DNA of 64,000 nucleotides, from positions 3,936,001-4,000,000 of the forward strand of contig OZ255842.1 in assembly GCA_965277805.1 (NCBI GenBank), given 5' to 3'. How positions within the stretch are numbered: the stretch's first letter is position 1; every line of letters starts with the position of its first letter. The notes beneath the pieces were generated by a model. That model was not told the origin of the DNA and did no database searches. It saw only the letters and a list, made by a program, of their open reading frames with translations. The position numbers were made by a program, and so were the translations under genes. This DNA comes from Candidatus Lustribacter sp. (GTDB taxonomy: Bacteria; Vulcanimicrobiota; Vulcanimicrobiia; Vulcanimicrobiales; Vulcanimicrobiaceae). Positions 24,426 through 41,210 of the stretch are shown here, piece after piece.

Positions 24426-24517
24426 GCAAGAAGGTAAAGATCGGAGCCAAATCCCGCTTCGTGTCCGGAATCGGGGCGACAGACCGCGTGCAAACGCCTA
24501 TACTTGACCGCGTTGTG

Positions 24518-25333: not shown

Positions 25334-26352
25334 CACGCGCACTGCTCTGCGCGTTTGCTCTCGTGTTCGCCGGAGCGGTCGCGCGCGCAGATCCCCTCGA
25401 ACGCGCCTACACCAATGCCGTGCGCAAGATGGCGCACGGCGCCGGCGTCGCGCGCCCCGACGGCTATACGTGGGCATACGATTCGGCCCAGCTGCTGCGC
25501 TTCGCCGCCGTCGACCGCGATCTGACCCGCTACCTCGAATTGCGCGGCGCGATCGTCAAGCGCTTCGTGCTCGCCGATCCGGCCGATGCCGAGGCGCGTG
25601 ACGACGTCGCTTGGCGCGTGCGTGACGGCGCGTTTCCCGAGGCGAGCGGCACGACCGAGGCACTAGCGTTGGCCGATGCGCTCATCGTGGGCGCGAACGC
25701 TTTTAATCGCGAGGACGATCGCACGCTTGCCCGCAGCATCGCGGGCGCCTACATGCGCCACGCCACGACCGAGGGCGGGGTGTGGTTCATCCGCAACTAC
25801 TACAATTTTTCCACGCACGCGTACGCCAATAATTCGTTTCTCGTCGACTATTTGCCCGACGTTCTCGCGCGAGCGGGAGAAACCGACGGCGCGGAGCGCT
25901 CGGACGCGCTGCTCGATCGCGCGATGGGCCCGGCGGGCCTTTTCTACGAACTGGTTCAACCCGAGATCGACACCGCATTTCCCGGTGCAGGTTTGGCTTT
26001 TTTCTCACCCAACGCCGTTTCATCGATCACGAACGCGTGCAATTTGGCGCTCTATGCAACACAGGGGCGGCCGGCGCTCGCGCGACGCGTCCTCGCCTTC
26101 GGGGTCGCGCGAGCGAACGATCTCAAACGATTCTACGATGTTCGCACGGGCGTGCCGCGCAGCGGCGAGAACGCCGGAACGCCGGCCTACGCATGCCTCA
26201 CCCGGCTCGCCGTTCGCTTGGGTGATGAGCGTGCGCGCCGCAAGCTCGAACCCAATCTGCGGGCCAACGCCGCGACCCAGCTCGCCAACGGGACCGCGGG
26301 CCCGGATACGGCGACGGCGGTCGTGTTCGCGTTACGCGGCAGCGACCGCTAA
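25318..26352 (+). CDS. Secreted helical protein, putative (alpha/alpha)-barrel glycoside hydrolase/lyase
   Basis: Signal peptide (AVARA-D); VAWR...EASGTTEALA and IRNYYNF recall GH8-like architecture; overlaps the barrel gene. Confidence 0.5.
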   Translation: MAALLARALLCAFALVFAGAVARADPLERAYTNAVRKMAHGAGVARPDGYTWAYDSAQLLRFAAVDRDLTRYLELRGAIVKRFVLADPADAEARDDVAWRVRDGAFPEASGTTEALALADALIVGANAFNREDDRTLARSIAGAYMRHATTEGGVWFIRNYYNFSTHAYANNSFLVDYLPDVLARAGETDGAERSDALLDRAMGPAGLFYELVQPEIDTAFPGAGLAFFSPNAVSSITNACNLALYATQGRPALARRVLAFGVARANDLKRFYDVRTGVPRSGENAGTPAYACLTRLAVRLGDERARRKLEPNLRANAATQLANGTAGPDTATAVVFALRGSDR

Positions 26353-27272
26353 ACCAGAACGGCGCGGCCGAGCGCGGCCTGCAGCAGCCGGTCGATGAGC
26401 GCTTCGAACGAGATTCCGGCGGCTTTCGCCTCGTCCGGCAAAAGCGAGAGCGGCGTCAACCCGGGCAGCGCGTTGATCTCGAGGATGTACGGGCGGCCTT
26501 CTTTGGTCACGATGAAATCGGTGCGCGAGTAGTCGCGCAAGCCCAGCATACGATGGACGGAGAGCGCGAGCATCTGCAAGCGCGCGGTCAGATCGCCGTC
26601 GATCGGCGCAGGCACCAGATGGCGCGAACCGCCGGGCTTGTATTTCGCGTCGTAGGAATAGAACTCGTCGCTCGCGATGATCTCGACCAGCGGCAGCGCT
26701 TCTTCACCCAGCACGCCGCTCGAAAACTCGCGGCCCGGTATGAATTCTTCGACCACGATCTGGGTCGTGCGCGGCGCGACGCCGATCATCGCTTTGGTCC
26801 ACTCTTCGTGCGTGCGCACGATCGACACGCCGGCGCTCGAACCGCTGGCGCGCGGCTTAACGACGAGCGGCAAATTCAGCGAACCCGGCAACAGCGGCAA
26901 CGTGCCGCCGGCAAGATCGAACGTGTCCCAGGCGGGCGTCGGCAGGCCTTCGGCGGCCAGCAATTTTTTGGTGAGGTGCTTGTCCATCGCGAGCGCGCAG
27001 CTGGTGAGATCGCTGCCCGTGTACGGAATGCCGAGCCACTCGAGCACGCCTTGAATCGTGCCGTCTTCGCCGCCCGTTCCGTGCAGCGCGTTGAACACGA
27101 CGTCGGGACGGATGTCGCGCAGCGCATCGACGAAGCGGCCGTCGAAATCGAGCGACTGCGCTTCGTGACCGAGCGTGGCCAGCGCCCGCATCACGGCTTG
27201 TCCGCTTTCGATCGAAACCTCGCGCTCGGCGCTGGGGCCACCCATGACGACCGCGACCCGTACGTTAGACAT
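26349..27272 (-). CDS. ddl: D-alanine--D-alanine ligase
   Basis: GGPSAEREVS, LHGTGGEDG, FYSYDAKY, EINALPG. Confidence 0.96.
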   Translation of the reverse strand: MSNVRVAVVMGGPSAEREVSIESGQAVMRALATLGHEAQSLDFDGRFVDALRDIRPDVVFNALHGTGGEDGTIQGVLEWLGIPYTGSDLTSCALAMDKHLTKKLLAAEGLPTPAWDTFDLAGGTLPLLPGSLNLPLVVKPRASGSSAGVSIVRTHEEWTKAMIGVAPRTTQIVVEEFIPGREFSSGVLGEEALPLVEIIASDEFYSYDAKYKPGGSRHLVPAPIDGDLTARLQMLALSVHRMLGLRDYSRTDFIVTKEGRPYILEINALPGLTPLSLLPDEAKAAGISFEALIDRLLQAALGRAVLV

Positions 27273-28206
27273 CCGCTACGAACTCCCCGACGAGGTGAAC
27301 TTCGAGGTGGAGGTCGATGCCGAACTCCGCATCGACCGCGCGATGAACGCGGGCGAGCAGCGAGCTGACATCGAGGGCCTTCGCGCCGCCGACGTTGATG
27401 ATGAAGTTAGCGTGAAGCTGGGAGACTTCCGCCCCGCCCGACCGCCAGCCCTTGGCGCCCACGGCTTCGATGAGGCGCCCGGCCCGGTCACCGGGCGGAT
27501 TGCGAAAGCACGAACCGGCGTTGGGCACGGCCACCGGCTGCGTGGCCTTGCGCCGCACGAGCCGGTCCTGGGTGCGGGCCCGCACGGCGGCCGGGTCAGC
27601 GCATGGAAAGGCCAGCGTCACTTCGGACACGATCGCCTCGCGCGCCAGCGTGGTCTGGCGATACGAAAATCCCACCCACTGCGGCGCCGGCTGCGGGTGG
27701 GTTGGGGTCTGGATCCGCACCTCGCGCACGAACTCGCCGATCTCGCGGTCGGTGCCGGCGTTCATGCGCACGGCACCACCCACGCTGGCCGGGATTCCCG
27801 CCAGACCGTCGACGCCGTCCGCGCCGAGCGAGGCGGCTTGCGCCACGAGCTGCGGCAGCGACGCGCTCGCGCCGGCGCGCGCCACGACCATGCCGTCTTC
27901 AACGCGCACGTCGAGCGCATCGTACTCGCCGCCCAGCTGCACGACGAGACCGCGCATGCCGCCGTCGCCGACGAGCAGATTCGAGCCCGCACCCAAGACG
28001 AAGCACGGCAGCTTGTGGCGGAAACACCACTGCAGCACGAACGCGACGTCATCGGTCGTGTTCGCCGCGATCGTGGCGTCGGCCGGTCCGCCGATCTTCC
28101 ACCACGTCGCCGGCGCCAGCGGGGCATCGAAGCGCACGCGCTCGTCGAACCGCTCCGTCAACGCCGCGCGGTCGTCATCGGCGAGCAGCGTGGCGCTAGC
28201 GTTCAT
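27265..28206 (-). CDS. murB: UDP-N-acetylmuramate dehydrogenase
   Basis: KIGGPAD, GAGSNLL, GIPASVGGAVRMNAG, NAGSCFRNP, HANFIIN. Confidence 0.96.
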   Translation of the reverse strand: MNASATLLADDDRAALTERFDERVRFDAPLAPATWWKIGGPADATIAANTTDDVAFVLQWCFRHKLPCFVLGAGSNLLVGDGGMRGLVVQLGGEYDALDVRVEDGMVVARAGASASLPQLVAQAASLGADGVDGLAGIPASVGGAVRMNAGTDREIGEFVREVRIQTPTHPQPAPQWVGFSYRQTTLAREAIVSEVTLAFPCADPAAVRARTQDRLVRRKATQPVAVPNAGSCFRNPPGDRAGRLIEAVGAKGWRSGGAEVSQLHANFIINVGGAKALDVSSLLARVHRAVDAEFGIDLHLEVHLVGEFVADV

Positions 28207-29585
28207 CGCGCGACGGCCGGCGCTTCCAGCAACGCGCCCAGCTTGTGCGCGACGCCCGAGATCGAACCGGCGCCCAGCATCAGCACGACGGCTTCGCCCG
28301 CGATCGCGCGCGGCACCGCTTCGAGCAAACCGTCAACGCTCGCAACATAGGTAACGGGCGTACCCCGCGCGGCCAGCGGTTCGCCGATCGAACGTTCGCT
28401 GACGCCCTCGATCGGCTCTTCTGATGCGGCGTAGATCGGCGCCAGCAGCACCGCATCCGCATTCGCGAGCGCGTTGGCGAAATCACCGGCGAGGTAGCGC
28501 GTGCGCGAGTAGCGATGCGGCTGAAACGCAACGATGACGGGCTTGCCGGTAAAACCGCGCGCGGCGGCGATCGTCTGCGCGATCGCGGTCGGATGGTGCG
28601 CGTAGTCGTCGACGATCGTCACGCCGCGGTGGTCGCCGACAATTTCGAAGCGCCGGCGGACGCCGCGATAAGCCGCGAGCGCGGCCGCGATCGTCGGCAC
28701 GTCGATCTTGAGCGTGCGCGCGACCGCGATCGCGGCGAGCGCGTTCTGCACGTTGATCTCGCCCGGCACGTGCAGCGCGATCGTGCCGAGCGCGGTGCCG
28801 CGTTCGACCAGCGTGAACTGCGAGCCCAGTCCCTCGTAGACGATGTCGCGGGCCACGAGATCGGCATCGACGCGCGTCGCAAACGTGAACTTCGGCGCGG
28901 TGGCGCTTTTCGCGATGAACGCGCTGCCGCGATTGTCGAGGCCGATGATCGCGCAGCCGTCGGGCGGTACGCGCTGCACGAAGGTCGTGAACTGCGCCAG
29001 CAGTCCCGGCAACTCATCGTCGCTCGAGATGTGATCGTTCTCGACGTTGGTCACGACCGCGATCGTCGGCTGCAAATGTAAAAACGAACCGTCGCTCTCG
29101 TCGCTCTCGGTGACGAACCACACGCCGGAACCTGCGGCCGCATTCGTTCCGGTATCCACGCGCAGGCCGCCGATCGCGTAGGTCGGATCGACGCCGGCAT
29201 GTTCGAGGATCGTCGCGGTCATCGCGGTCGTCGTCGTCTTGCCGTTCGTGCCGGCGATCGCGATCGTCTTGCGCGAGCCGATCAGATCCGCCAGCATCGC
29301 GCCGCGTGTTTTGATGTCGATGCCGCGTTCGATCGCCGCGACGAATTCAGGGTTGTCGTGCGCGATCGCGCTCGAAACGATCACGAGATCCGGATTGCCG
29401 ACGTTCTCGCCGCGATGACCGATCGCGACCGTTGCGCCTTCGGACTCGAGCGCTTGCACGAGGTCCGAGCGATAGACGTCGGAGCCCGTGACCCGCGCGC
29501 CGCGCGCCAGCAGCAACCGCGCAATCGCACTCATGCCGATCCCGCCGATGCCGACGAGATGATATGACGCCGCTCCGTTATTCAC
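28203..29585 (-). CDS. murC: UDP-N-acetylmuramate--L-alanine ligase
   Basis: GIGGIGMS, AGTNGKTTT, ESDESDGSF, DDYAHHP, FQPHRYSR. Confidence 0.97.
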   Translation of the reverse strand: MNNGAASYHLVGIGGIGMSAIARLLLARGARVTGSDVYRSDLVQALESEGATVAIGHRGENVGNPDLVIVSSAIAHDNPEFVAAIERGIDIKTRGAMLADLIGSRKTIAIAGTNGKTTTTAMTATILEHAGVDPTYAIGGLRVDTGTNAAAGSGVWFVTESDESDGSFLHLQPTIAVVTNVENDHISSDDELPGLLAQFTTFVQRVPPDGCAIIGLDNRGSAFIAKSATAPKFTFATRVDADLVARDIVYEGLGSQFTLVERGTALGTIALHVPGEINVQNALAAIAVARTLKIDVPTIAAALAAYRGVRRRFEIVGDHRGVTIVDDYAHHPTAIAQTIAAARGFTGKPVIVAFQPHRYSRTRYLAGDFANALANADAVLLAPIYAASEEPIEGVSERSIGEPLAARGTPVTYVASVDGLLEAVPRAIAGEAVVLMLGAGSISGVAHKLGALLEAPAVAR

Positions 29586-30735
29586 GGCCGTTTCCGTTCG
29601 CTCCGGCCGATTCTACGACCCGTGCCGGCATGAGAAATTCGATGCGGCTCACGATCTTGCGACCAACGTCGGACGACGCCAGGGATCCGGCGGCCGCGCG
29701 CATTTGCGCCAGCCGTTCGGGCTGCAGCATCGCATCGAGCGTCCACCACAGCCGGTCGCCGTCGAGTTCGGCGTCCGGGATCACGATCGCAGCGCCGCAT
29801 TCGGCAAAGACGGCGGCATTCGAGACCTGGTGGTTGTCGGTGTGGTGCGGATAGGGCACGAGGATCGCCGGCGTGCCGGTTGCCGCCAGCTCGGCCAACG
29901 TCGACGCGCCGGCGCGCGCGATCACGACGTCGGCGGCGGCATACGCATTGGCCGGGTCGGTGAGATACGGCACGAGCATCACATGGTTCACGCCGACGTC
30001 GCGCTCTTCGGCCTCCATGTAGGCATGATCGCGCTCGCCGCTGACGTGCAGCACCTGACGGTCGTCGCCCAGCGTGCGGCGCGTCACGAGCGCCGCCACC
30101 GCCTCGTTGACGGAACGCGCGCCGAGGCTCCCGCCCATTGCGACGACCGTCGCGCGTTCGGGCGCGAGGCCGAGTTCGAGCCGCGCGCGCGAGGGGTGCA
30201 CCTTGCGCGTGAGCGACGCGCGCACCGGCGCGCCGGTGCGATACGCCTTGCCGCGAAAGTAGGGCGCCGACGCGTCGTACGTTGTCCAAACTTCGTCGAC
30301 GATCGGCGCGAGCAGGCGATTCGTCAGGCCCGGCGTGAGGTCGATCTGCAGCAGGGCGATGCCGCAGCGCAACAGTCCGAACGTACGCAAAATCCGCGCC
30401 GCAACGACGACCGGAAAACAAACGTAGCCGCCGGTCGCAATCACCATCAACGGCTGGAAACGGCGCAGCGCTCCGAGCGCCACGATCACGCCGAGCAGCG
30501 TGGTCAGCACCGTGAACAGCGTGCCGATGGAGAGCTTGCGCTGCAGCGCCGCGCTCGGCACGAACGACAGCGGCATCGTCGTCACCAGCTGCGCCTCGAG
30601 GCCGTGGCGGTTCCCGAAAAAGCGCGGCTCGTAGTGCGCGGAATCGTATTCGGCGCGAATGGCATCGTCGATCGCAAGCGCCGGATAGATGTGGCCGCCG
30701 GTGCCGCCGCCGGTGAACGCGACGCGAAAGGACAC
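29578..30735 (-). CDS. murG: Lipid I N-acetylglucosaminyltransferase
   Basis: GGGTGGHIYP, TGGYV, GGSLGA, RAGASTLAE. Confidence 0.96.
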   Translation of the reverse strand: MSFRVAFTGGGTGGHIYPALAIDDAIRAEYDSAHYEPRFFGNRHGLEAQLVTTMPLSFVPSAALQRKLSIGTLFTVLTTLLGVIVALGALRRFQPLMVIATGGYVCFPVVVAARILRTFGLLRCGIALLQIDLTPGLTNRLLAPIVDEVWTTYDASAPYFRGKAYRTGAPVRASLTRKVHPSRARLELGLAPERATVVAMGGSLGARSVNEAVAALVTRRTLGDDRQVLHVSGERDHAYMEAEERDVGVNHVMLVPYLTDPANAYAAADVVIARAGASTLAELAATGTPAILVPYPHHTDNHQVSNAAVFAECGAAIVIPDAELDGDRLWWTLDAMLQPERLAQMRAAAGSLASSDVGRKIVSRIEFLMPARVVESAGANGNGRE

Positions 30736-30739
30736 GCGC

Positions 30740-31891
30740 CTACCGCGTACGGCGGGCGACGTTCATGATCAGGGCCACGGCCACGAGGCTGACGATCAGC
30801 GACGTTCCCCCGAACGAGATGAACGGCAGCGGAACACCGGTCACCGGCCACGACGACGTGACCACGCCGATGTTGATGAAGGCCTGGATGACCACCAGCA
30901 GCGCGCAGCCGACGATCAGGAAAAAGCCGAAGCGGTCGCTCGCGCGCTGCGCGAGCATGAACGCGCGAATTCCCAAGGCGGCGAAGAGCATGAGCACGAT
31001 CATCGTGCCGAGCATGCCGAGTTCTTCGCCGATCACGGCAAAGATGAAGTCGGTGTGCGCTTCCGGGAGATAGAAAAACTTCTGGCGCGAAGCCCCGAGG
31101 CCGAGGCCGAAGATGCCGCCGCTACCCAAAGCGAGCAGCGACTGCACGATGTGGAAGCCTGTGTTCTGCGCGTCTTTCCATGGATCGAGAAACGCGAGGA
31201 TGCGCGCGCGTTTGTAGGCGCTCGCGCCGACGGCAAGCGCCACCGGCGGCAGCAACGCGAGGAGGGCGAGCGCGACGTGTTCGACGCGCGCGCCGGCGCA
31301 AAAGAGCATCCCGAACGCGGTGAACATGACAAGGCTCGCCGTGCCCATGTCGGGCTCGAGCAGGATCGGCACCGCGATCACCGCCGCCACGAGCAGCGCC
31401 GGCACGACGCCGCGCACGAGCGATCGTACATCGGCGCCGATCGTCGAGAGCTTCGCCGCGAGGAAGAGCACGAGCGTGAGCTTCGCAATCTCCGAGGGCT
31501 GAAAGCTCAGGAAACTCGCGCCGAGCCAGCGCCGGGCGCCGCCCGTTTGCAAACCGATGTGCGGGATCAGCGTGAGCACGAGCATCAGCACGGTGATGCC
31601 GACGAGCGCCGGCGAGATGCGCTTGAGCTTCGTGTAATCGACGCGATAGGCCGCATAGGCGAAGCCGCCGCCGATCACGAGCCAGATGAGCTGGCGCTTG
31701 AGGAAATACGCGGTGTCGTGATAGGTCGCGTACGCGGTCGCACTCGACGCGCTGAACACCATCACGAGACCGATCGCGATCAGGCCCGCGACCGTGGCGA
31801 AGAGCCACGGGTCAGGCGGCGCGAGCGCCGTCCGCGCACGCATCGGCGGCGGCAGGGTCGTCCCGAGACTGCGCTGCGCCTTAGCTAACAC
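30740..31891 (-). CDS. ftsW: SEDS peptidoglycan polymerase FtsW
   Basis: GARRW, FQPSEIAK, LPEAHTDFIFA, GVPLPFISFGG. Confidence 0.95.
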   Translation of the reverse strand: MLAKAQRSLGTTLPPPMRARTALAPPDPWLFATVAGLIAIGLVMVFSASSATAYATYHDTAYFLKRQLIWLVIGGGFAYAAYRVDYTKLKRISPALVGITVLMLVLTLIPHIGLQTGGARRWLGASFLSFQPSEIAKLTLVLFLAAKLSTIGADVRSLVRGVVPALLVAAVIAVPILLEPDMGTASLVMFTAFGMLFCAGARVEHVALALLALLPPVALAVGASAYKRARILAFLDPWKDAQNTGFHIVQSLLALGSGGIFGLGLGASRQKFFYLPEAHTDFIFAVIGEELGMLGTMIVLMLFAALGIRAFMLAQRASDRFGFFLIVGCALLVVIQAFINIGVVTSSWPVTGVPLPFISFGGTSLIVSLVAVALIMNVARRTR

Positions 31892-33284
31892 GCGCGGTCC
31901 CGTTCACGGCGGCCGCGAAGGCTTCGCCGCGGGCCTCCGCCGAGGCGAACATGTCGAACGATGCATTGCCGGGCGAGAGCAGCACGACGTCGCCGCTCGC
32001 CGCGAACGACCGGGCCGTCGCCACCGCTTCGTCCATCGAACCGGCGTAGGCGACTTCTGCGCGCTTGACGTGCTTAGCGATCTCCGGCGCCGCCTCACCG
32101 ATCAGTACGACGGCTTTCGTGCGCGACGAGATGACTTTGCCGAGCTCCGAGAACTCCGTCCCCTTCGATTTGCCGCCCGCGATGAGGACGATCGGGCGAT
32201 CGAACGAGCGCAGCGCCGCGATGACGGCGCCCGGGTTCGTCGCTTTGGAATCGTCGACGTAGAGAATACCGTCGCGATCGGCGACCGTCTCGAGCCGGTG
32301 GTGCAGCGGTTTGAATGCGCGCACGGCCGCGGCGATCGCGGTGCGGTCCAACCCCGCCGAGAGGCCCACCAGCACCGCCGCCATCACGTTGTCGACGTTG
32401 TGTGCGCCGTGCAGCGGGATATCGGCCACGTTCATGATCTCGACCGGGCGCGGGTCGCCGGTCGGCGGAGCGTAGACGATCGAGCTTTCGTTGCGCATGT
32501 AGAGCGTGCTCTGACGGTGCGGCTCGCGCGAGAACCACAGCGCGCGTGCACGGATGCGCGTGTTGTCTTCACCCGGCGCGGCGGCGACGATCGGATCGTC
32601 GAGGTTGCCGACGAAGGTGTCGCCCGGGCCTTGGTTGGCGAAAATGCGGAACTTCGCTTCGGCGTACTCGTCCATCGAGTGGTAGCGATCGAGATGATCG
32701 GGCGTGATGTTGATGATGCACGAGATGCGCGGCTTGAACGAGCGGATCGATTCGAGCTGGAACGACGAGACCTCGGCGATGACCCAATCTTCGGGCTTCG
32801 CGACCGCCGTTTCCGCGATCAGCGCGTTGCCGATGTTACCGCCGACGTACGTGGTGAAGCCGGCCTGGCGGAAGATCTCGCCGATCAGTGCGGTGGTCGT
32901 CGACTTGCCCTTGGTGCCGGTCAGCGCGACGATCGGCGCTTGGCAAATGCGATAGGCGACTTCCACTTCGCTGAACACCGGCACGCCGGCTGCCTGAATG
33001 CGCCGCACCAGCTCGCCGTTGAGCGGGATGCCGGGCGAGAGGACGGCCACCGTCACTTTGGGCAGGATCTCACCGAGCGCATCAGGCGCGACGAACGGCA
33101 CGCCGGCCTTCTCGAGTTCCGCCAGGACGGGAGCGAGGGCGCTCGGCGAGCCCTCGTCGGTACCGTAGATCTGCGCGACGCGCGGCTGCAAGACCGCGAC
33201 GCTCGCGCGCCCGCTGCGGCCGAGCCCGATGACGAGGACGCGTTCGTTACGATCGAAGCGAACGGAAGAGATCGGAATATTCAT
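31881..33284 (-). CDS. murD: UDP-MurNAc-L-Ala--D-glutamate ligase
   Basis: GLGRSG, TGTKGKSTT, EVSSFQLE, DDSKATN; ATG 33284 overlaps the mraY stop. Confidence 0.96.
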   Translation of the reverse strand: MNIPISSVRFDRNERVLVIGLGRSGRASVAVLQPRVAQIYGTDEGSPSALAPVLAELEKAGVPFVAPDALGEILPKVTVAVLSPGIPLNGELVRRIQAAGVPVFSEVEVAYRICQAPIVALTGTKGKSTTTALIGEIFRQAGFTTYVGGNIGNALIAETAVAKPEDWVIAEVSSFQLESIRSFKPRISCIINITPDHLDRYHSMDEYAEAKFRIFANQGPGDTFVGNLDDPIVAAAPGEDNTRIRARALWFSREPHRQSTLYMRNESSIVYAPPTGDPRPVEIMNVADIPLHGAHNVDNVMAAVLVGLSAGLDRTAIAAAVRAFKPLHHRLETVADRDGILYVDDSKATNPGAVIAALRSFDRPIVLIAGGKSKGTEFSELGKVISSRTKAVVLIGEAAPEIAKHVKRAEVAYAGSMDEAVATARSFAASGDVVLLSPGNASFDMFASAEARGEAFAAAVNGTARVS

Positions 33285-34222
33285 GCATGCACCACGATGA
33301 CGAAGCCGATGATTCCCAAGCAGAGCGAAGCTAACCAGAACGACGAGGTGACACGGGTTTCCGGCCAACCGCCCAACTCGAAATGATGATGCAGCGGGCT
33401 GATGCGAAAGACGCGCCGCCCGGTGGTTTTGAACGACGTTACCTGAATGATCACGGAGAGTGTTTCGGCCACGAACACGCCGCCGATGAGCAAGAGCAGC
33501 AACTGCGAACCGGTGAGGATCGCCGCCCCCGCCAGCGCTGCGCCGAGCGCGAGCGAGCCGGTATCACCCATGAAAATCTTCGCCGGATGGCGGTTGTAGA
33601 GTAAGAAGCCGAGCACCGCACCGAGCACGGCCACTGCCAAGATCGCCACGCTCGCGTTGCCTTGGCGCACGGCGATGAATGCTAGGAGCGCGAGCGGCGG
33701 CACGACCGTTCCCGAGGCGAGGCCGTCGAGCCCGTCGGTGAGGTTGACCGCGTGCGTCGTGGCGAGAATCACCGCGAGCGAAAGCCCATACCACACCCAA
33801 TACGGCACCGGACCGATGAAGAGCACCGCGTGCGGATCGGGGGTCAGCAACGCGACGTACGCGAGAAAGCCGGCGCCGATCACGGCGGTTGCGAGAAACT
33901 TCGTGCGCGCGTTCAAGCCGCGATTGCGGCCGCCGCGAATCGCCATGTAGTCGTCGATGACGCCGACCAGCGCCGAACCCGCAATCAGCAAACCGTAGGC
34001 CGCCACGATCGGATCGCGCGAGATCGCAAACGCGACCAGCGGGGCCAGCAGAAAGAGCAAACCGCCGAGGGTGGGCGTGCCGGTCTTCTTCTGGTGCGTT
34101 TGCGGTGCGAGTTCGTAGGCGTGCTGCCGCAGCGCAGCGCGCCGCAAGTAGCGTATCAGCGCCGGCGCCAGCACGGCCACCAGCGCGAACGTCACGACCA
34201 GCGCGACGAGCAGATCGATCAC
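33281..34222 (-). CDS. mraY: Phospho-N-acetylmuramoyl-pentapeptide transferase
   Basis: KTGTPTLGG, DDY, NLTDGLDGL, FMGDTGS, PLHHHFE. Confidence 0.96.
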   Translation of the reverse strand: MIDLLVALVVTFALVAVLAPALIRYLRRAALRQHAYELAPQTHQKKTGTPTLGGLLFLLAPLVAFAISRDPIVAAYGLLIAGSALVGVIDDYMAIRGGRNRGLNARTKFLATAVIGAGFLAYVALLTPDPHAVLFIGPVPYWVWYGLSLAVILATTHAVNLTDGLDGLASGTVVPPLALLAFIAVRQGNASVAILAVAVLGAVLGFLLYNRHPAKIFMGDTGSLALGAALAGAAILTGSQLLLLLIGGVFVAETLSVIIQVTSFKTTGRRVFRISPLHHHFELGGWPETRVTSSFWLASLCLGIIGFVIVVHA

Positions 34223-34917
34223 GCCGCACGCACCAAGGGATGCGCGCCGGCGCCGCGCCAGGCGAGGATGACCAGCGGCGTTTGTTCGTCGCCGTTGCCG
34301 GCGGGGTTGCCGAGCAGTGCCTTCTCTACCGCATCGCGCACGACGCCGGGCGACGCCCCGAGCGCCTTCGCGCGGCGCAGATCGTTGGCGTCGACGATCG
34401 CGATGTGCAATCCCAGCTCTTGCGCGAGTTCCGCGCTGACCTTGTCCGGCTCAGCGGGGCCGAGCACGATCGCACGCTCGTAGGGCGGCAGCGTGCCGGT
34501 GTAGCCGTCGATCGCGGCGATCGCTTCGCCGAGCAATTCGTAGAACACGCCGCGGCGTCCGATCGCGCGGCCGGCCACCTGCAGCACTGCGGCGCCGAAG
34601 ACGCGCCACGCGCCGACTTGGTCGATCACGAGCTGCAGCGACTCGGGCTGGTTGATCGTCGCGAGCACACCCGCGCGGCGCGCCAGCACGCGTGCGAGCT
34701 TCGAAGGACGGATCGTTTCGGCGCCGATGAAACGCCCTTGCGCGATCGCCACCGCCGTCTCCGCAATCGCGACGACGTCGCCCGGCTGCGCTAGGCCCGA
34801 GAGCGCTTCGCGCAACAGCGCGGCGAGATCGTCGCCTTTGACGATCAAGCGCGTGCGCACGGGAATCGCCACGATGCCTTCGGGCAGCGAGGGCTCGTGA
34901 ATCGCCACCGGGATCAT
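34219..34917 (-). CDS. CofE-like (F420-0:gamma-glutamyl ligase family) protein inside the dcw operon
   Basis: GDDL, GDVVAIAETAVAIAQGR, AIDG, IVDAND, GNGDEQTPLVI; 4-bp overlaps with murF and mraY. Confidence 0.75.
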   Translation of the reverse strand: MIPVAIHEPSLPEGIVAIPVRTRLIVKGDDLAALLREALSGLAQPGDVVAIAETAVAIAQGRFIGAETIRPSKLARVLARRAGVLATINQPESLQLVIDQVGAWRVFGAAVLQVAGRAIGRRGVFYELLGEAIAAIDGYTGTLPPYERAIVLGPAEPDKVSAELAQELGLHIAIVDANDLRRAKALGASPGVVRDAVEKALLGNPAGNGDEQTPLVILAWRGAGAHPLVRAA

Positions 34918-36281
34918 GCCGACAACCCCGCCACGATTTGCTCCATGCGGTACATGCGCGAGCCTTTGAGCAGCACGGTATCGCTGGGCCGCCCGTTTTC
35001 GCGCAGCCACGCGATCGCTTCTTCGTTGGTTTGGTAGATCACGAGCGCGTCTTCCGCAAGGCCCATCGCACGCGCGCCCGACGCAAGCGAGGGCGCGAAC
35101 GCGCCGCCGAACAGCACGACGTCAGCGGACGCTGCCGCCGCCGCGCCGACGCTCTGGTGCATGAACGCGGCGTCCGGACCCAATTCGGCCATGCTGCCGA
35201 TCACCGCGATGCGGCGCGCCGGCACGCGCTCGCGCGCAAACGTCTGCAGCGTGGCGAGCGCGCCGCTCGTCGAGGCGTTGTAGGCATCGTAGATGATCGT
35301 CGGTCCGCCGGCGATCGCGATGCGTTCGTAACGGCCGTGCGGGAGTTCGAATTTCGGCGCAGCTTGCGCGACGGCGGACGGATCGACGCCCGCCGCCCAC
35401 GCCGCGGCGAACGCAGCGGCAAGGTTGCGCCGGTTGTGATCGCCCGGCACGTCGACGAGCAACGGAAACGCGCGCACGTCGTCACCATCGATTGCGAGCA
35501 CGTCGTCGAGGCGTACGATCGCCGCCCGTTCGCCCGCCGGCGGCCGTTGCGCGTCGATGCCGAACCACACCGGCTGCTGGCCCAACTCCGGCGCGCGCTC
35601 CCGCGAGGTGTCATCGCTGAGGTTGAGCACCGGTTGCGCGCCGCCCCCAAAGATTCCCCACTTCGTCTCGGCGAGCCGCTCGCGGCTGCCCATGATCTCG
35701 AGGTGCGCTTCGCCGATGTTCGTGAGCACGCCGATGTCCGGCCGCGCCGCCATCACGAGCGGCTCGAGATCGCGGTATTTGCGCGCGCCGAACTCGACGA
35801 TCGCCACGCGCTCGTCGCCGTCGTCGAGGGAGAGCAAGAATTTCGCGACACCGATCTCGTTGTTCTCGTTCTCCGGCGTTGCGGTTACCGGCCGGCCGGC
35901 CGCCTCGAACGCCTGCAGCGCGAACGTCTTCGTCGTCGTCTTGCCGGTACTGCCGGTGATTGCGATGACCGGACCGTTCACGCGATCGCGCGCCAGCCCG
36001 CCGAGCGCGAGATAGGCCGCCAGCGTGTCGGCAACGACGATGCCCGCTTGACCCTCCGGCAGCGCGCTCGCATCATCGACGATGACGGCCGATGCGCCGG
36101 CCGCCACGGCGGCGTTCACGAATTTGTGTCCGTCGAAACGCTCGCCGCGCAAGGCCAGGAACGTTTCGCTGGGCCGGATGTCGCGCGTGTCGGTCGAGAC
36201 CGCGATCGTGGCCGGCAAGTGTTCGCGATTGTGCACGGTTCCTGCGAGCGCGGCCAGCGCGTCGTTCGTCGGCAGCCTCAT
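34914..36281 (-). CDS. murF: UDP-MurNAc-tripeptide--D-Ala-D-Ala ligase
   Basis: GERFDGH, TGSTGKTTTK, NNEIG, DAYNAS, MAELG, LKGSR. Confidence 0.96.
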   Translation of the reverse strand: MRLPTNDALAALAGTVHNREHLPATIAVSTDTRDIRPSETFLALRGERFDGHKFVNAAVAAGASAVIVDDASALPEGQAGIVVADTLAAYLALGGLARDRVNGPVIAITGSTGKTTTKTFALQAFEAAGRPVTATPENENNEIGVAKFLLSLDDGDERVAIVEFGARKYRDLEPLVMAARPDIGVLTNIGEAHLEIMGSRERLAETKWGIFGGGAQPVLNLSDDTSRERAPELGQQPVWFGIDAQRPPAGERAAIVRLDDVLAIDGDDVRAFPLLVDVPGDHNRRNLAAAFAAAWAAGVDPSAVAQAAPKFELPHGRYERIAIAGGPTIIYDAYNASTSGALATLQTFARERVPARRIAVIGSMAELGPDAAFMHQSVGAAAAASADVVLFGGAFAPSLASGARAMGLAEDALVIYQTNEEAIAWLRENGRPSDTVLLKGSRMYRMEQIVAGLSA

Positions 36282-37708
36282 GCGCGCAACGCTCCCGAAC
36301 GCAACGAGAACGCGCTGCGTACTTCGTCGCGGTCATCGAACGGAAACCGCTCGTCGCCGATGATCTGGTAGGCTTCGTGGCCCTTGCCCGCCACCACGAC
36401 CGTATCGCCGGCGCGCGCATCGTTGATCGCGCGGCGGATCGCGGTGCGCCGGTCGAGGATCACTTCGGCAATGATGCCGTCGGCGATCGCGGCGGCAATT
36501 TCGGCCGGGTTTTCACTGCGCGGATTATCGGTGGTCACGATCACCGCGTCGGCCGCTTCGGCCGCGATGCGTCCCATCTCCACGCGTTTGCCCGCATCGC
36601 GGTCGCCGCCGCACCCGAACACCACGATCAAGCGCCCGCGCGTCGTTTCACGCGCGGCGCGCAGCACGTTCGTCAGGGCATCGGGCGTGTGCGCGTAGTC
36701 GACGATCGCATCGATGCCGAACGCGCCGATGCGTTCCATCCGGCCGGGTACCGCGCGCACCGTGGCCAGACCGCGCACGATCGCTTCGTCGTCGATGCCG
36801 GCCGCCCGCGCGAGACCGATCGCGGCGAGCGCGTTCGCGACGTTGAACCGGCCGGGCAGGCTGATCTCGATGTGCATTCCGTCAACGTCGAATTGCGATC
36901 CGTCGCCGTTGAGGACGATGTTCGTTGCGCGCAGTTGCGCCACGCGGTCGATCGCGTAGGTGGTCGCAGTCACAAACTCACCGGCAAACGTGCGGCCCAC
37001 CGGATCGTCGACGTTGAGCACCGCCAGCGGCGCCAAATCGAAGAGATGGCGCTTGGCGGCGATGTAGCGCGTAAGCGTGCCGTGAAAATCGAGATGGTCG
37101 CGCGTGACGTTGGTCAGCACCGCTGCACGAAAGTGCACGTCGTCGGCACGGCCCAGCGCGAGCGCGTGCGACGAGACCTCCATCGCTACCGCGCGCGCGC
37201 CGGCGTTGCGCATCTCCGCGAGCGTGCGGTGCAGTTCGATCGCTAGCGGCGTCGTGTTCTCGAGCGCCCACGTCTCGCCGCCGAACACGCCGCCGAGCGT
37301 ACCGATCACGCCGCACGGGATACTCGCCGCTTCGGCGATCGCGCGGATCAGATACGACGTTGTCGTTTTGCCGTTGGTCCCGGTGATGCCGAAGACCATC
37401 ATTCCGAGCGACGGCTGGCCGTAGAATTTTGCGGCCAGCCGCGAGATCGCACTGCGTGTGTCATCGACCACGACCTGCGGTACGTCGACATCAACTTCGT
37501 GCTCGACGACCAGTGCGGCGGCACCGCGTGCGACGGCACCCTTGGCAAAGCGATGGCCGTCCACACGCTCGCCTCGGACGGCAACGAAAAGGCTGCCGGG
37601 CTCAACCGTACGCGAGTCGACGGCAATCGAGGTCACGGCTTCGGGCAAGGTGCCGATGATTCGCGGCGCGGTCAGTGCGTCGAGCAACGGCCGAAGCTCT
37701 CGCATCAT
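36278..37708 (-). CDS. murE: UDP-MurNAc-dipeptide--meso-DAP ligase
   Basis: TGTNGKTTT, MEVSSH, DYAHTPD, DNPR (meso-DAP-type motif), AGKGHE. Confidence 0.96.
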   Translation of the reverse strand: MMRELRPLLDALTAPRIIGTLPEAVTSIAVDSRTVEPGSLFVAVRGERVDGHRFAKGAVARGAAALVVEHEVDVDVPQVVVDDTRSAISRLAAKFYGQPSLGMMVFGITGTNGKTTTSYLIRAIAEAASIPCGVIGTLGGVFGGETWALENTTPLAIELHRTLAEMRNAGARAVAMEVSSHALALGRADDVHFRAAVLTNVTRDHLDFHGTLTRYIAAKRHLFDLAPLAVLNVDDPVGRTFAGEFVTATTYAIDRVAQLRATNIVLNGDGSQFDVDGMHIEISLPGRFNVANALAAIGLARAAGIDDEAIVRGLATVRAVPGRMERIGAFGIDAIVDYAHTPDALTNVLRAARETTRGRLIVVFGCGGDRDAGKRVEMGRIAAEAADAVIVTTDNPRSENPAEIAAAIADGIIAEVILDRRTAIRRAINDARAGDTVVVAGKGHEAYQIIGDERFPFDDRDEVRSAFSLRSGALRA

Positions 37709-39474
37709 CGTTTCTTCTTCGCAGCAGCCGGCCGGGAAACCAAGCGCGGGGGAGAGCTCGGCATGATGTCGTCGTGCAACATCACCGTGCGCGCGAGGTC
37801 GGCGAAAATCGGCGCCGCGACGGTACCGCCGTAGTAGGAGCCGCGCGGGCGCTCGATCTTCACGAAGATCACGTAACGCGGCTGTTCGGCCGGCACGTAA
37901 CCGATAAAGGAGCCGACGTACTCGCCCGGCTCGTAGCGGCCGTTTTCCACCACCTGCGCGGTACCGGTCTTCCCGGCCGTGGTGTAGCCCGGGGTGCGCG
38001 CGCTGGGATTCCCCGTGCCGTACGTCACGACCGCGCGCAAGATCTGCCGCAACTCCGCCGCCGTCGTCTCGGAGATCACGCGCCGTTCGATCTCGGGCGC
38101 GTACGTGTAGATCACCTTACCGTTCGCATCTTCGAGGGCGTGCACGATGCGCGGGCGCAGCAAGAGCCCGCCGTTGGCGATTGCGGCGTACGCCCGCGTC
38201 AGCGCGATCGGCGTCGTCGACACGCCGTGACCGAACGAGATCGTCGCGACCGAACTGCCGCTCCACTCGGAGACCGGCGGAACGATGCCGGCATTTTCGC
38301 CGTCGAGTTCGACGTGCGTGTAGTCGCCGAAACCGAATTTGCGGATCATCGCATACAGCGTCGAGGCGCCGATCCTCATGCCCACTTCGGCCGCGCCGAC
38401 GTTGTGCGAGTACGCGACGATATCTTGCAGCGTCTCGGTACTCGACGATCCGGCCATGAAGCCGTCCTCGGCGTTGTGAATCGTATGACCGCCGACATCG
38501 AGCTGATCGCGGGCCGGAAAGCGCGTCTTCAGCGTCACCTTGCCGCTCTCGAGCGCCGCGGCGGCGGTGATCAGCTTGAAGGTCGATCCGGGCTCGTAGG
38601 CGTCCGCCACCGCGCGATCGCGCCACGAGTTTTCCGGCGCTTGCGAGAAATGGTTGGGATCGAAGTCCGGCGCGTTGGCCATCGCCAGGATCTCGCCCGT
38701 GTGTACGTCCATCACGACGGCCGTCGCGCTCTTCGCGTGCCAAGTCTTCATCGCGGCGTCGATCTGGTGTTCGGCCTCGAACTGCAGGAACGAATCGAGC
38801 GTCAGCACGAGCGTCTTGCCGGGTTGCGCGCGTTCGATCACGGTCGAGTCGCCGAACGGGATCGCGCGTCCGAACTCATCCGCCTCGACGCGCATTTTTC
38901 CCGGCGTACCGCGCAGGTAGCCATCGAACGAGTACTCGAGGCCGGCGAGCCCGTTTTCTTCCGTTCCCACGAAGCCGAGCACCGTCGACGCGAGCCGGCC
39001 CGATGGTGCGTACCGCACGCCGGTCTCTTCGGGTTTGAGCCCGATCGCGTCGATGTTCAGCGCTCGGACGCGCTCGGCAACCGAGTGCGGAATCTTGCGC
39101 TTTAGGTAGCGGAACGGCGTGCGCTCGCGCAACGCTGCTTCGAGCCGGTCTTGCGAATAGCCGAGGATCGGCGAAAGTTTGGCGGCGATTTCCGGCACGT
39201 CGGAGGGATCGATCGACGTCGGCACCGCGTAGACGCTCTCCGACGGGAGCGATCGCACGAGAACCGTTCCGTCGCGATCGACGATCGAGCCGCGCTTGGC
39301 GAACGCGTCGACGGTTTCGCTATGCTGGGAGAGCGCAAGACGCGAAAGATTCGCGCTCTGACGAATTTGGACGTCGGCGAGCCGCCACGTTAGCCATAAG
39401 GTAACCAGAAGCGTCGCAAGAATAGCGAGCTTCGCGCGTACGACAGGAACGCGCGCGAACGCCCGGTCGGCCAT
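37705..39474 (-). CDS. ftsI: Class B penicillin-binding protein (FtsI/PBP3)
   Basis: N-terminal TM, RGSIVDRDG, EPGSTFK (SxxK), SHN, KTGTAQ. Confidence 0.93.
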   Translation of the reverse strand: MADRAFARVPVVRAKLAILATLLVTLWLTWRLADVQIRQSANLSRLALSQHSETVDAFAKRGSIVDRDGTVLVRSLPSESVYAVPTSIDPSDVPEIAAKLSPILGYSQDRLEAALRERTPFRYLKRKIPHSVAERVRALNIDAIGLKPEETGVRYAPSGRLASTVLGFVGTEENGLAGLEYSFDGYLRGTPGKMRVEADEFGRAIPFGDSTVIERAQPGKTLVLTLDSFLQFEAEHQIDAAMKTWHAKSATAVVMDVHTGEILAMANAPDFDPNHFSQAPENSWRDRAVADAYEPGSTFKLITAAAALESGKVTLKTRFPARDQLDVGGHTIHNAEDGFMAGSSSTETLQDIVAYSHNVGAAEVGMRIGASTLYAMIRKFGFGDYTHVELDGENAGIVPPVSEWSGSSVATISFGHGVSTTPIALTRAYAAIANGGLLLRPRIVHALEDANGKVIYTYAPEIERRVISETTAAELRQILRAVVTYGTGNPSARTPGYTTAGKTGTAQVVENGRYEPGEYVGSFIGYVPAEQPRYVIFVKIERPRGSYYGGTVAAPIFADLARTVMLHDDIMPSSPPRLVSRPAAAKKKR

Positions 39475-39900
39475 TTAACGGCGGAAAAATGCGCCCAGGA
39501 ACGCGATGCCGTTGGAGGGCGGCGCCACGACCGGACCGGGAACGTCGACCACGGCGTACCGGCTGGGATCGTGCATGTTCATGCGACCCGCCAAATCGGC
39601 CAGACGCTCGCGCGACTGGAGTTGCGCGATGCGATCGTCGAGACGCAGCGTCTCTTCGACGAGGGCACTTTTCGTCTGCGTCGCCTGCGCGAGCGAGTAG
39701 TTGAGCGCGGTGAGGTTGCCCATGAGGAGCACGTAAACCATCACCGGCACCAGCAGCACCCCGAACCCGATTGCGATGAGCGCGGGCATCGCGTAATTCT
39801 GCATTCGCGTGCGGCGTCCGCGACGGCGCGCGGCTTCGCGCGCGCGTACCTGGACGCGCGGCTGGGGTTGAGTCTGCGGAATTGCTTTGAGCGCAATCAC
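39475..39900 (-). CDS. ftsL: FtsL-like cell division protein
   Basis: Position between rsmH and ftsI; basic N-terminus, one TM, coiled coil. Confidence 0.65.
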   Translation of the reverse strand: MIALKAIPQTQPQPRVQVRAREAARRRGRRTRMQNYAMPALIAIGFGVLLVPVMVYVLLMGNLTALNYSLAQATQTKSALVEETLRLDDRIAQLQSRERLADLAGRMNMHDPSRYAVVDVPGPVVAPPSNGIAFLGAFFRR

Positions 39901-40763
39901 GCGGCGGCCTCGCTTTCAACGGTGGCGACGCGCATTTTCGCGCTGCGCGCCCGGGGATTGGTGCTGATTTCCTCATCGCCCGGTACGATGGGTTTGCGCG
40001 TGAGCGGTTGCACGCGCTCGTCCTCACGAAAGAACAGCTTCACGATACGATCTTCAAGCGAATGAAAGCTGATGACGGCGATGCGGCCGCCGGGGCGCAC
40101 GACGTTCGCCGCTCCGTCGAGGCTCTCGCGCAGCGCGCCGAGCTCGTCGTTGACCGCGATGCGCAAAGCCTGAAAGGTCCGCGTTGCGGGGTGAATGCGC
40201 TCGCGCTTCCCACGCACGTGCACGGACCCGGCGACGATCGCAGCCAGCTCGCCCGTGGTCCGCGGCAGTTTGCTCTTGAGCGCGCGGGCGATACGCCGTG
40301 AGTTGCGCTCGTCGCCATAGCGGAAGATGATGTCGGCCAACTCGACCTCGTCGTGCGAGACGATGTAGTCGGCCGCGCTTTCGCCCTGCGTTGGATCGAG
40401 CCGCATGTCGAGCGGCGCGTCGCTGCGGAACGAGAAGCCGCGCGCGCCGTCATCGAGCTGCATCGAGCTCACACCTAAGTCGTAGAGGACGCCGTCCACC
40501 CGCGCGATCGCCCGCGACGCCAGCTCCGCGGCGAGCGTCCGGAAATTTGCGTGTATTAAGGTAAGCCGCGGATCCTCCGGCGCGAGCGACGCCGCAAGCG
40601 GATCCGCATCGAAAGCGATTGTCCGTCCGAGCGGCCCCAATCGCTCCAGGATCAGCCGCGTGTGTCCGCCCGCGCCGAAGGTCGCGTCGACGTAAGTCCC
40701 ATCCGGGACGATGGCCAGAGCATCGAGTGCTTCGGTTGCAAGAACCGATGTGTGCGGCGGCAC
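39897..40763 (-). CDS. rsmH: 16S rRNA m4C1402 methyltransferase
   Basis: DATFGAGGH, DLGVSSMQLD, PLDMR, FHSLEDR, NPRARSAK. Confidence 0.97.
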   Translation of the reverse strand: MPPHTSVLATEALDALAIVPDGTYVDATFGAGGHTRLILERLGPLGRTIAFDADPLAASLAPEDPRLTLIHANFRTLAAELASRAIARVDGVLYDLGVSSMQLDDGARGFSFRSDAPLDMRLDPTQGESAADYIVSHDEVELADIIFRYGDERNSRRIARALKSKLPRTTGELAAIVAGSVHVRGKRERIHPATRTFQALRIAVNDELGALRESLDGAANVVRPGGRIAVISFHSLEDRIVKLFFREDERVQPLTRKPIVPGDEEISTNPRARSAKMRVATVESEAAA

Positions 40764-40766
40764 CCA

Positions 40767-41210
40767 CTAATACAGCCCGAGCTCGGAGCGGAAGTCGGTG
40801 AGATCACCGGCGCCGGCCGCGACGGCAGCGTAACGATCCTTCGCCCAGAGCTCGACCCGGGTCAGAGAACCGATCGACGTCACGTCTTTCTCGATGTGGG
40901 CCCACGCGCGCAACACCGGCGGCAGCACGAGCCGGCCTTGGTTATCGCACGAGCTCTCTTCGGTGTGCGCGAACAGATGGCGCACGAACGCGCGATAGCG
41001 CGCGTCCTTCACCGGCGAGGCCTCGAGGCGCGCGCAAAATTCGTTCCACATGACAGCAGGGTAGAGCGCCAGACACTGGTCGGGCTCGCCGATCGTTACG
41101 AAGAAGCCGGACCCCAGACGTTCCCGGAAGCGTGCGGGCACGACGAGACGGCCTTTGTCATCAAGGCTATGTTCGACCGAACCGGTGAACAGGGGCCGTT
41201 CCGCTGCCAA
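40767..41210 (-). CDS. mraZ: Division/cell wall cluster repressor MraZ
   Basis: DDKGRLVVP and DNQGRLVLP repeats; first gene of the dcw cluster. Confidence 0.96.
   Translation of the reverse strand: MAAERPLFTGSVEHSLDDKGRLVVPARFRERLGSGFFVTIGEPDQCLALYPAVMWNEFCARLEASPVKDARYRAFVRHLFAHTEESSCDNQGRLVLPPVLRAWAHIEKDVTSIGSLTRVELWAKDRYAAVAAGAGDLTDFRSELGLY

Follow-up and report, generated by a model that had tools for sequence, protein, structure and literature searches.

A CofE-fold protein encoded between murF and mraY in Candidatus Lustribacter, a candidate ligase of peptidoglycan precursor synthesis

Gene X and its place in the dcw operon

The window analysed here is a stretch of 64,000 nucleotides (nt) of Candidatus Lustribacter sp. 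(Vulcanimicrobiota; GenBank assembly GCA_965277805.1, contig OZ255842.1, positions 3,936,001 to 4,000,000), whose host is described as a soil bacterium, and its division and cell wall (dcw) operon contains a gene, here called X, that may encode an enzyme acting on peptidoglycan precursors. X is an open reading frame (ORF) of 232 amino acids (aa) with an ATG start at 34219..34917 on the minus strand; it encodes a CofE-fold protein and lies between murF (UDP-MurNAc-tripeptide--D-Ala-D-Ala ligase; 34914..36281, minus; TIGR01143, 308.8 bits, cut-off 288.6) and mraY (phospho-MurNAc-pentapeptide transferase; 33281..34222, minus; TIGR00445, 277.3 bits, cut-off 192). The gene order is mraZ-rsmH-(141-aa ORF)-ftsI-murE-murF-X-mraY-murD-ftsW-murG-murC-murB-ddl. 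The plus-strand letters tcat at 34914-34917 read as ATGA on the minus strand, where the start of X overlaps the stop of murF, and tcac at 34219-34222 reads as GTGA, where the GTG start of mraY overlaps the stop of X. A sequence-only reading of this DNA had described a 232-aa CofE-family protein overlapping both neighbours in a canonical dcw operon, and the ORF, the sequence and the profile matches bear this description out. An alternative longer start, a GTG at 35010, lies in the same frame; the ATG is the likely start because most of the 120 closest listed relatives are 232 aa long and cover 100% of X.

X passes the gathering threshold of Pfam family PF01996 (F420_ligase superfamily) with 52.5 bits against a cut-off of 25, the match being confined to X residues 20-102, which correspond to profile positions 2-82 of 218. 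The protein has no signal peptide. A Pfam scan found neither Mur_ligase_M nor Mur_ligase_C in X, these Mur ligase domains being present only in the MurF part of MurF-X fusions. The ratio of nonsynonymous to synonymous substitution rates, calculated against eight orthologues, was 0.17-0.40, indicating purifying selection, and X is a real gene under constraint.

A survey of dcw neighbourhoods, which the sequence-only reading had proposed as a check, found the position of X conserved. At all 30 loci from the phylum search (families f1 and f2, the window's own locus included), X is flanked on its own strand by murF immediately upstream and mraY immediately downstream, and murF-X-mraY also occurred in 5/5 loci fetched from f3 of the same class, giving 35/35 genome loci of the class. 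A metagenome scan yielded 80 X loci, of which 76, 58-74% identical to X, belonged to the Eremiobacteria type; MurF was present in 71 and MraY in 72 of these, and each miss was a contig end within ~110 bases of X. In three of the 35 genome loci, all of genus g42, MurF and X form a single open frame with a linker. Of the 56 relatives that exceed 406 aa, 18 clusters contain both Mur-ligase and PF01996 domains, most of them 730-770 aa in length. Moreover, X was more conserved than both MurF and MraY at 29/29 non-self phylum-search loci. The earlier suggestion that X is tied to peptidoglycan precursor synthesis gains from this conserved dcw position, from the MurF-X fusions and from the Amidase_3, asparagine (Asn)-synthase and polysaccharide-deacetylase fusions of distant relatives, and the gene contexts and fusions make X a well-supported candidate for a peptidoglycan-linked enzyme.

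Other long open frames around X were mostly chance frames in high-GC DNA, and only those at the 3/35 loci were kept as true MurF-X fusions. X-MraY fusions were dropped as evidence. The linker of one such protein, P0503, is arginine-rich, garbled and frameshift-like, and another, P0487, is topologically doubtful, since the topology of MraY would place X on the incorrect face of the membrane. The MurF-X protein P0486, one of the 18 clusters above, also has an arginine-rich garbled linker of the frameshift type. The linkers of P0486 and P0503, both from public protein sets, resemble frameshift artefacts at 4-nt gene overlaps.

The remaining genes of the operon, all on the minus strand, were assigned by profile matches. 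Upstream of murF lie murE of the meso-diaminopimelate (DAP)-adding type (36278..37708; NF001126, 512 bits, cut-off 373), a gene for an FtsI/SpoVD-like class B penicillin-binding protein (37705..39474; TIGR02214, 438.6 bits, and TIGR03423, 317.7 bits, both below the equivalog cut-offs), rsmH (39897-40763; TIGR00006, 313.2 bits) and, at the head of the operon with rsmH, mraZ (40767-41210; TIGR00242, 101.5 bits). The 141-aa ORF between rsmH and ftsI (39475-39900, minus) occupies the usual place of ftsL and has no NCBIfam match at E<=1e-8. A weak consensus scan placed the sole minus-strand promoter-like site at 41280-41252, upstream of mraZ, and found no minus-strand terminator-like site in 33281-36281, which spans murF-X-mraY. 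Downstream of mraY, murD, ftsW, murG, murC, murB and ddl occupy 26349..33368, with scores of 415.6, 389.5, 231.5 (cut-off 250), 453.8, 277.9 (NF010480) and 345.3 bits (NF002378), respectively. The murD ORF (31881-33368, minus), listed with a TTG start and 495 aa long, shares 88 nt with the end of mraY, and its true start is probably further downstream because the TIGR01087 match begins only at residue 43. Downstream of ddl, at 21163-24856 (minus), where ftsQ, ftsA and ftsZ would be expected, three ORFs (226, 495 and 592 aa) gave no match to NCBIfam models at E<=1e-8; they overlap one another and may be miscalled in this high-GC DNA.

Fold, paralogy and the F420 pathway

An AlphaFold2 model of X, built on 36 diverse relatives, had a predicted local distance difference test score of 94.2 and a predicted template modelling score of 0.90. 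When the model was compared with the PDB using Foldseek, only the Archaeoglobus CofE entries 2PHN, 2G9I and 7ULD were matched (E 2e-10 to 4e-9, template modelling score 0.6), and the next match had E>1. Alignment with 2PHN by VIA-align gave Z 15.7 and a root-mean-square deviation of 3.1 A over 185 residues at 26% identity, spanning model residues 14-231, with the next Z at 3.3. X as modelled carries the CofE fold over almost its whole chain.

The sequence of X is separated from that of true CofE. It scored 34.4 bits against TIGR01916 (cut-off 180.65) and 36.9 bits against NF009809 (cut-off 274), the two CofE equivalogs, with the N-terminal third alone matched, whereas true CofEs of the same phylum scored 198-272 bits; the best match of X to PDB sequences had E 2e-4 over 66 residues. 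Judged by these scores, X is not a CofE orthologue. X-type matches were found in 198 of the 201 sampled genomes of the phylum, including those with a true cofE, and the three X-negative genomes are 90%, 75% and 67% complete (the 201-genome tallies of X and cofE take in two genomes flagged as unpublished, G128 and G178). Because X coexists with true cofE in genomes of other classes of the phylum, it is a distinct, older paralogue.

The distribution of F420 genes follows the same division. A true cofE (TIGR01916 above cut-off) was present in 39/201 genomes of the phylum, all 39 outside the window's class, and in none of the 131 sampled genomes of that class (f1 0/113, f2 0/3, f3 0/15). The complete single-contig genome of 5.53 Mb to which the window belongs has one PF01996 match, and the best matches to cofD (21 bits, cut-off 257), cofH (35 bits, cut-off 374; cofG had no separate search) and cofC (25 bits, cut-off 105) in the whole genome all fall below cut-off, so that X does not co-occur there with the remaining F420 pathway. 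The sequence-only reading had noted that the window held no other F420 genes, which now extends to the whole genome, and had suggested that X does not act on F420; the pathway not found, the count of 0/131 in the class and the place of X as a paralogue beside CofE elsewhere all speak for this suggestion, and a role for X outside F420 synthesis is well supported on genomic grounds. In other classes of the phylum, at loci L139-L146, a 246-aa true cofE lies between two ORFs whose N-termini we take to resemble cofD and an F420-dependent luciferase-like oxidoreductase; these classes would then hold the F420 pathway as well as X.

A profile-profile alignment of the X family with six true CofEs of the same phylum was significant (probability 97.9) and covered X residues 24-189 only. 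Columns conserved in both families (X residue first) were D47/D37 (PGD), Q60/E50, R62/R52, G123/G104, N178/D154, D179/S155 and P214/P217, and Q60, G61 and R62 of X were aligned with the E50-G51-R52 motif of CofE. The stretch separating the last two strands is ~25 residues longer in CofE than in X. A passage of PMC10861534 describes a long CofE beta-hairpin wrapping over the F420 site, and the segment missing from X is presumably this hairpin. The C-terminal register of the two families is ambiguous, N204 of X being paired with CofE D185 by MAFFT or with E207 by hand alignment. Across 36 X-family sequences with 30-70% identity, ~20 positions are invariant or nearly so, among them D47, D137, D176, N178, D179, N204, P205, T213 and P214, and together these positions look like a conserved catalytic centre.

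Relatives of X, their architectures and their partners

X belongs to a large subfamily that has no name of its own. Searching 1.84 billion cluster representatives exhaustively with HMMER identified 760 relatives of X at E<=1e-3, of which 94 were found at E<=1e-30, and Pfam architectures were read from 30 of the best 150. The commonest architecture, of ~400 aa, consists of an N-terminal transmembrane helix, a beta-sandwich of ~140 residues and X. The beta-sandwich gave generic structural matches, the best being the TMEM106B luminal domain at Z 7.2, below the caution line. Fusions to other enzymes were varied: X follows Amidase_3 (MurNAc-L-Ala amidase) in 5/30 representatives, in proteins without a signal peptide, and Asn-synthase/GATase in 6/30 (9/56 of the longer relatives); MurF-X accounts for 1/30; X is followed by an M20 peptidase, a GNAT domain or an adenylate kinase in 1/30 each, and by a transmembrane segment and a polysaccharide deacetylase in a further 1/30. 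Because the fusion partners of X include cytoplasmic enzymes (MurF, Asn synthase, adenylate kinase and GNAT) and positive charges follow the transmembrane helix, X would face the cytoplasm, at the membrane in the anchored forms.

The carriers of X include metagenome-assembled genomes (MAGs) of Eremiobacterota/Vulcanimicrobiota, 'Ca. Lustribacter' among them, together with Microcoleus, Lyngbya, Halomicronema, Prochlorococcus, Gloeomargarita and Sericytochromatia, and X was present in 52/151 genomes of the cyanobacterial phylum sample. Further carriers are Thermodesulfobium, Natranaerofaba, Limnochordia and Oscillospiraceae. Among the Negativicutes, X occurs in Sporomusa, Methylomusa, Pelosinus, Thermosinus, Propionispora, Lucifera and unnamed members, and the named close relatives of the Sporomusa protein are all from Negativicutes. 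Public records name the relatives of X 'coenzyme F420-0:L-glutamate ligase' or 'hypothetical protein'. The Prochlorococcus protein (P0273; L113 5497-6663; 388 aa), whose 90%-identity cluster has 1459 members, has no PF01996 or NCBIfam match and is publicly named 'ABC-type sugar transport system' or 'hypothetical'; its gene is preceded by a photosystem I accumulation factor gene and followed by a 351-aa gene of unknown function and ruvX.

Two kinds of gene partner bear on the amine that X might use. At locus L092, an Actinomycetota MAG, a standalone X overlaps a downstream Orn/Lys/Arg decarboxylase gene (OKR_DC_1, 293 bits) by 4 nt, and the same pair occurs at a 73%-identical metagenome locus, L193. 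An AbiV/HEPN-type gene (L092 5088-5834) lies directly upstream of this pair, and the region may be mobile or defence-rich. In cyanobacteria, 28/30 loci have a same-strand gene right after X, and in 23 of these 28 it encodes a GNAT domain (E<=0.01; 21 above the Pfam cut-off), six of the loci surveyed being near-identical relatives of Microcoleus. The C-terminal half of the GNAT partner matches only unnamed clusters in the Atlas, and a search of the window's own genome with the cyanobacterial partner as query gave a best match of 25 bits, to the GNAT core only, so that with this query no such partner was found there. An OKR_DC_1 decarboxylase is encoded in 126/131 genomes of the window's class, in 114/116 of those of high quality and in 3/14 control genomes, a tally that takes in the unpublished genomes G128, G178, G405 and G412. 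One genome of the family has, besides the common ~500-aa copy, two extra large tandem OKR_DC_1 genes (G045:C1:877391-881121; 524 and 513 bits).

Diamines are known on peptidoglycan stem peptides in two settings. In Negativicutes, according to passages of PMC10628300, PMC12826042 and PMC5007114, the D-Glu alpha-carboxyl bears cadaverine or putrescine and is bound by the S-layer homology (SLH) domain of OmpM, and in Cyanophora cyanelles, in the passages of PMC3266927, D-Glu is modified with putrescine at the membrane-bound stage, more efficiently on lipid II. The latter source cites Pfanzagl and Loffelhardt 1999, the title of which names N-acetylputrescine. None of the passages concerned in these four sources names a gene for the diamine-adding step. 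A cultured member of the Eremiobacterota is described in a passage of PMC9758169 as diderm, with thin peptidoglycan and a lipopolysaccharide outer membrane. The sequence-only reading had X ligating a polyamine or an amino acid to a peptidoglycan precursor; of this, the link to the wall stands, and the specific chemistry is circumstantial, resting on the decarboxylase pair, the GNAT pair and the Negativicutes carriers.

Proposed function and known systems

We propose, with confidence evenly divided for and against, that X is a cytoplasmic CofE-fold amide ligase that acts on a stem-peptide carboxylate of the peptidoglycan precursor. The CofE fold would have been recruited from cofactor tailing into cell-wall synthesis, and X would be translated together with MurF and MraY. 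Its catalysis, nucleotide use, target carboxylate and amine, as we infer them, would run as follows. The substrate would be UDP-MurNAc-pentapeptide, the product of MurF, or the lipid-linked intermediates of MraY and MurG. If it works as CofE does, X would use a nucleoside triphosphate (NTP) and a divalent metal to activate a free stem-peptide carboxylate as an acyl-phosphate, which an amine would then attack to give an amide. The likeliest carboxylate would be the alpha-carboxyl of D-iso-glutamate, and the likeliest amine a diamine or polyamine (putrescine or cadaverine, for example), with an amino acid possible; in cyanobacteria, the amine may be N-acetylated by the GNAT partner. A more specific version, which we offer tentatively as one possibility, is that X is the long-missing enzyme adding diamines (cadaverine, putrescine) to the D-iso-glutamate alpha-carboxyl of peptidoglycan precursors. 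If so, X would make the anchor point for SLH-domain outer-membrane proteins (OmpM) in diderm Terrabacteria, X would, together with its GNAT partner, account for the N-acetylputrescine modification that cyanelles inherited, and its incorporation into the dcw operon of Eremiobacteria, in one genus as part of MurF itself, would ensure that essentially all precursors are modified.

Several observations weigh against precursor ligation by X or against diamines as its amine. In other classes of the phylum, murF or mraY was found near X at 0/15 loci within the DNA fetched, and membrane-anchored X there adjoins genes for energy-coupling factor (ECF) transporters, FolD, MetH/MTHFR or GlnRS. The ECF-transporter genes form an operon with X in L044 and L048, are placed with it by layout in L051 and L053, and are divergent in L052 and L056; the other neighbours are FolD (L043, L045 and L054), MetH/MTHFR (L042) and GlnRS (L052 and L056). 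The CofE residues H43, K44, S47, K48, S115, N116, R158, W160, R161 and K212, invariant in the six CofEs, are not shared by X, and CofE D154 is aligned with the invariant Asn N178 of X. Because so many CofE-invariant residues have no counterpart, the nucleotide and metal use of X may differ from that of CofE or may be lost. The pairing with a decarboxylase consists of two related loci of one lineage, and X was found in 1/48 genomes of that class; the X-GNAT pairing could equally reflect a pathway for a small acetylated peptide or metabolite. Veillonella and Selenomonas, in which the polyamine linkage is proven, are outside the genomes sampled here, and X also occurs in Oscillospiraceae, which are monoderm, so it is not restricted to diderms. 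Finally, an SLH tether would not need polyaminated peptidoglycan, as a pyruvylated polymer could serve; the window's own genome has five SLH matches and one pyruvyl-transferase, and because both are present, this comparison gives no contrast.

At L044, L048, L051 and L053, all of family f6, the anchored X ends an apparent operon that also encodes a fused S/T component and a double ABC ATPase of an ECF-type transporter. At two other loci, L049 and L050, Ddl is encoded directly upstream of X.

An enzyme of the same class, acting on the same precursor, might instead carry out other chemistry, attaching an amino acid (L-Glu or Gly) or ammonia, or using the carboxyl of meso-DAP or of the terminal D-Ala; this we regard as unlikely, though worth serious attention. 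The alignment of Q60-G61-R62 with the E50-G51-R52 of CofE fits it, as does the meso-DAP type of MurE, and the Asn-synthase-type fusions (6/30; 9/56) suggest two modifications per stem peptide, one possibly on DAP. At L195, a weak Asp/Glu-racemase-like gene (26.5 bits, cut-off 31) lies two genes upstream of X, and both CofE and the FolC2 homologue add L-glutamate, as described in passages of PMC8498797 and PMC1971073. An amine, on the other hand, fits the decarboxylase operon and GNAT pairing better than an amino acid does.

More doubtful still is the explanation that X tails a soluble cofactor or metabolite outside the wall, such as a folate-like or glutamylated compound or an N-acetylated small peptide, and that its dcw position reflects co-regulation only. 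The FolD, MetH/MTHFR and ECF-transporter neighbours in the other classes favour such a substrate, and the combination of GNAT, Asn synthase and ligase resembles the pathway for N-acetylglutaminylglutamine amide. A precedent exists in the CofE homologue CT611 (FolC2), which complements an Escherichia coli folC mutant according to a passage of PMC1971073. Against this stand a canonical folC in the window's own genome (319 bits, cut-off 163), the translational coupling of X to murF and mraY, which is kept across the whole class, and the covalent MurF-X fusion; the independent links to Amidase_3, polysaccharide deacetylase and Ddl are also hard to explain without a wall substrate.

We give a similarly small chance to the idea that X has no ligase chemistry and serves as an adaptor or regulator that passes UDP-MurNAc-pentapeptide from MurF to MraY or senses precursor levels. 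The replacement of several CofE-invariant polar residues, the fusion to MurF in one genus and the transmembrane helix and beta-sandwich that anchor X to the membrane in most other lineages are all consistent with such a role. The ~20 invariant or nearly invariant polar and glycine positions in 36 members (D47, D137, D176, N178, D179 and N204 among them), however, look like an active site; the evolution of X is slower than that of MurF and MraY, and the pairings with decarboxylase and GNAT genes suggest chemistry. That X is an ordinary CofE adding glutamates to F420-0, as its above-cut-off PF01996 score and the public name of its relatives would have it, is hardly credible given its 34-37 bits against cut-offs of 180-274, a genome in which cofC, cofD and cofH do not exceed cut-off, a true cofE in 0/131 sampled genomes of the class and a chain ~25 residues shorter between the last strands, in a segment that we equate with the F420-contacting beta-hairpin.

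We regard X as a candidate ligase of the CofE fold whose substrate class and pathway context are both new. If precursor ligation by X is correct, the annotation of thousands of genes now called 'coenzyme F420-0:L-glutamate ligase' or 'hypothetical' would change in Prochlorococcus, many other cyanobacteria, Negativicutes and nearly all sampled Eremiobacterota; to our knowledge, F420 synthesis is not expected in these organisms, which was computed here for Eremiobacteria only. X is also a concrete candidate gene for a decades-old activity, the addition of diamines to D-Glu, on which outer-membrane tethering in diderm Firmicutes depends, and would bear on how Terrabacteria anchor their outer membranes and on how the wall modification of cyanelles arose. 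In Eremiobacteria it takes a small, soluble form that can be assayed directly. A search for literature linking CofE, COG1478 or PF01996 to peptidoglycan or Negativicutes found none; supplements and most subscription journals lay outside it, so an earlier description is possible.

Among known systems, X is like CofE (2PHN, 2G9I and 7ULD; TIGR01916; PF01996) in its predicted fold, its N-terminal PGD and (E/Q)GR motifs, its central RxG and its D/N-D/S pair, and this analogy makes X a probable NTP- and metal-dependent carboxylate-amine ligase as well. It differs from CofE in scoring far below the equivalog cut-offs, in forming a separate paralogue, in being ~25 residues shorter in the hairpin region, in its changed invariant residues and in its context, which is the cell wall rather than cofD and other F420 genes. 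The FolC2 protein of Chlamydia (CT611), compared here by description only, is a parallel case, in which, according to the passage of PMC1971073, the CofE fold serves a non-F420 substrate in a genome that lacks cof genes. FolC2 stands in for an absent folC and is encoded among folate genes, whereas X lies beside murF and mraY in a genome with a canonical folC, with FolD and MTHFR as neighbours only in other classes; X is not of the FolC2 type.

Enzymes that modify the stem peptide are known with the Mur-ligase fold (MurT) and the Asn-synthase fold (AsnB/LtsA), and if X modifies the precursor, it would add a third fold to them. MurT/GatD resembles the proposed X in its ATP-dependent modification of the D-iso-glutamate alpha-carboxyl on a membrane-bound precursor, as set out in a passage of PMC3266927. 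MurT has a Mur-ligase fold and a glutaminase partner, whereas X has the fold of CofE and the window encodes no GatD-like partner for it, and the two do not belong to the same family. The diamine-adding activities of Negativicutes and Cyanophora likewise modify the D-Glu alpha-carboxyl at the membrane stage, and X is encoded in many Negativicutes and in cyanobacteria, including Gloeomargarita.

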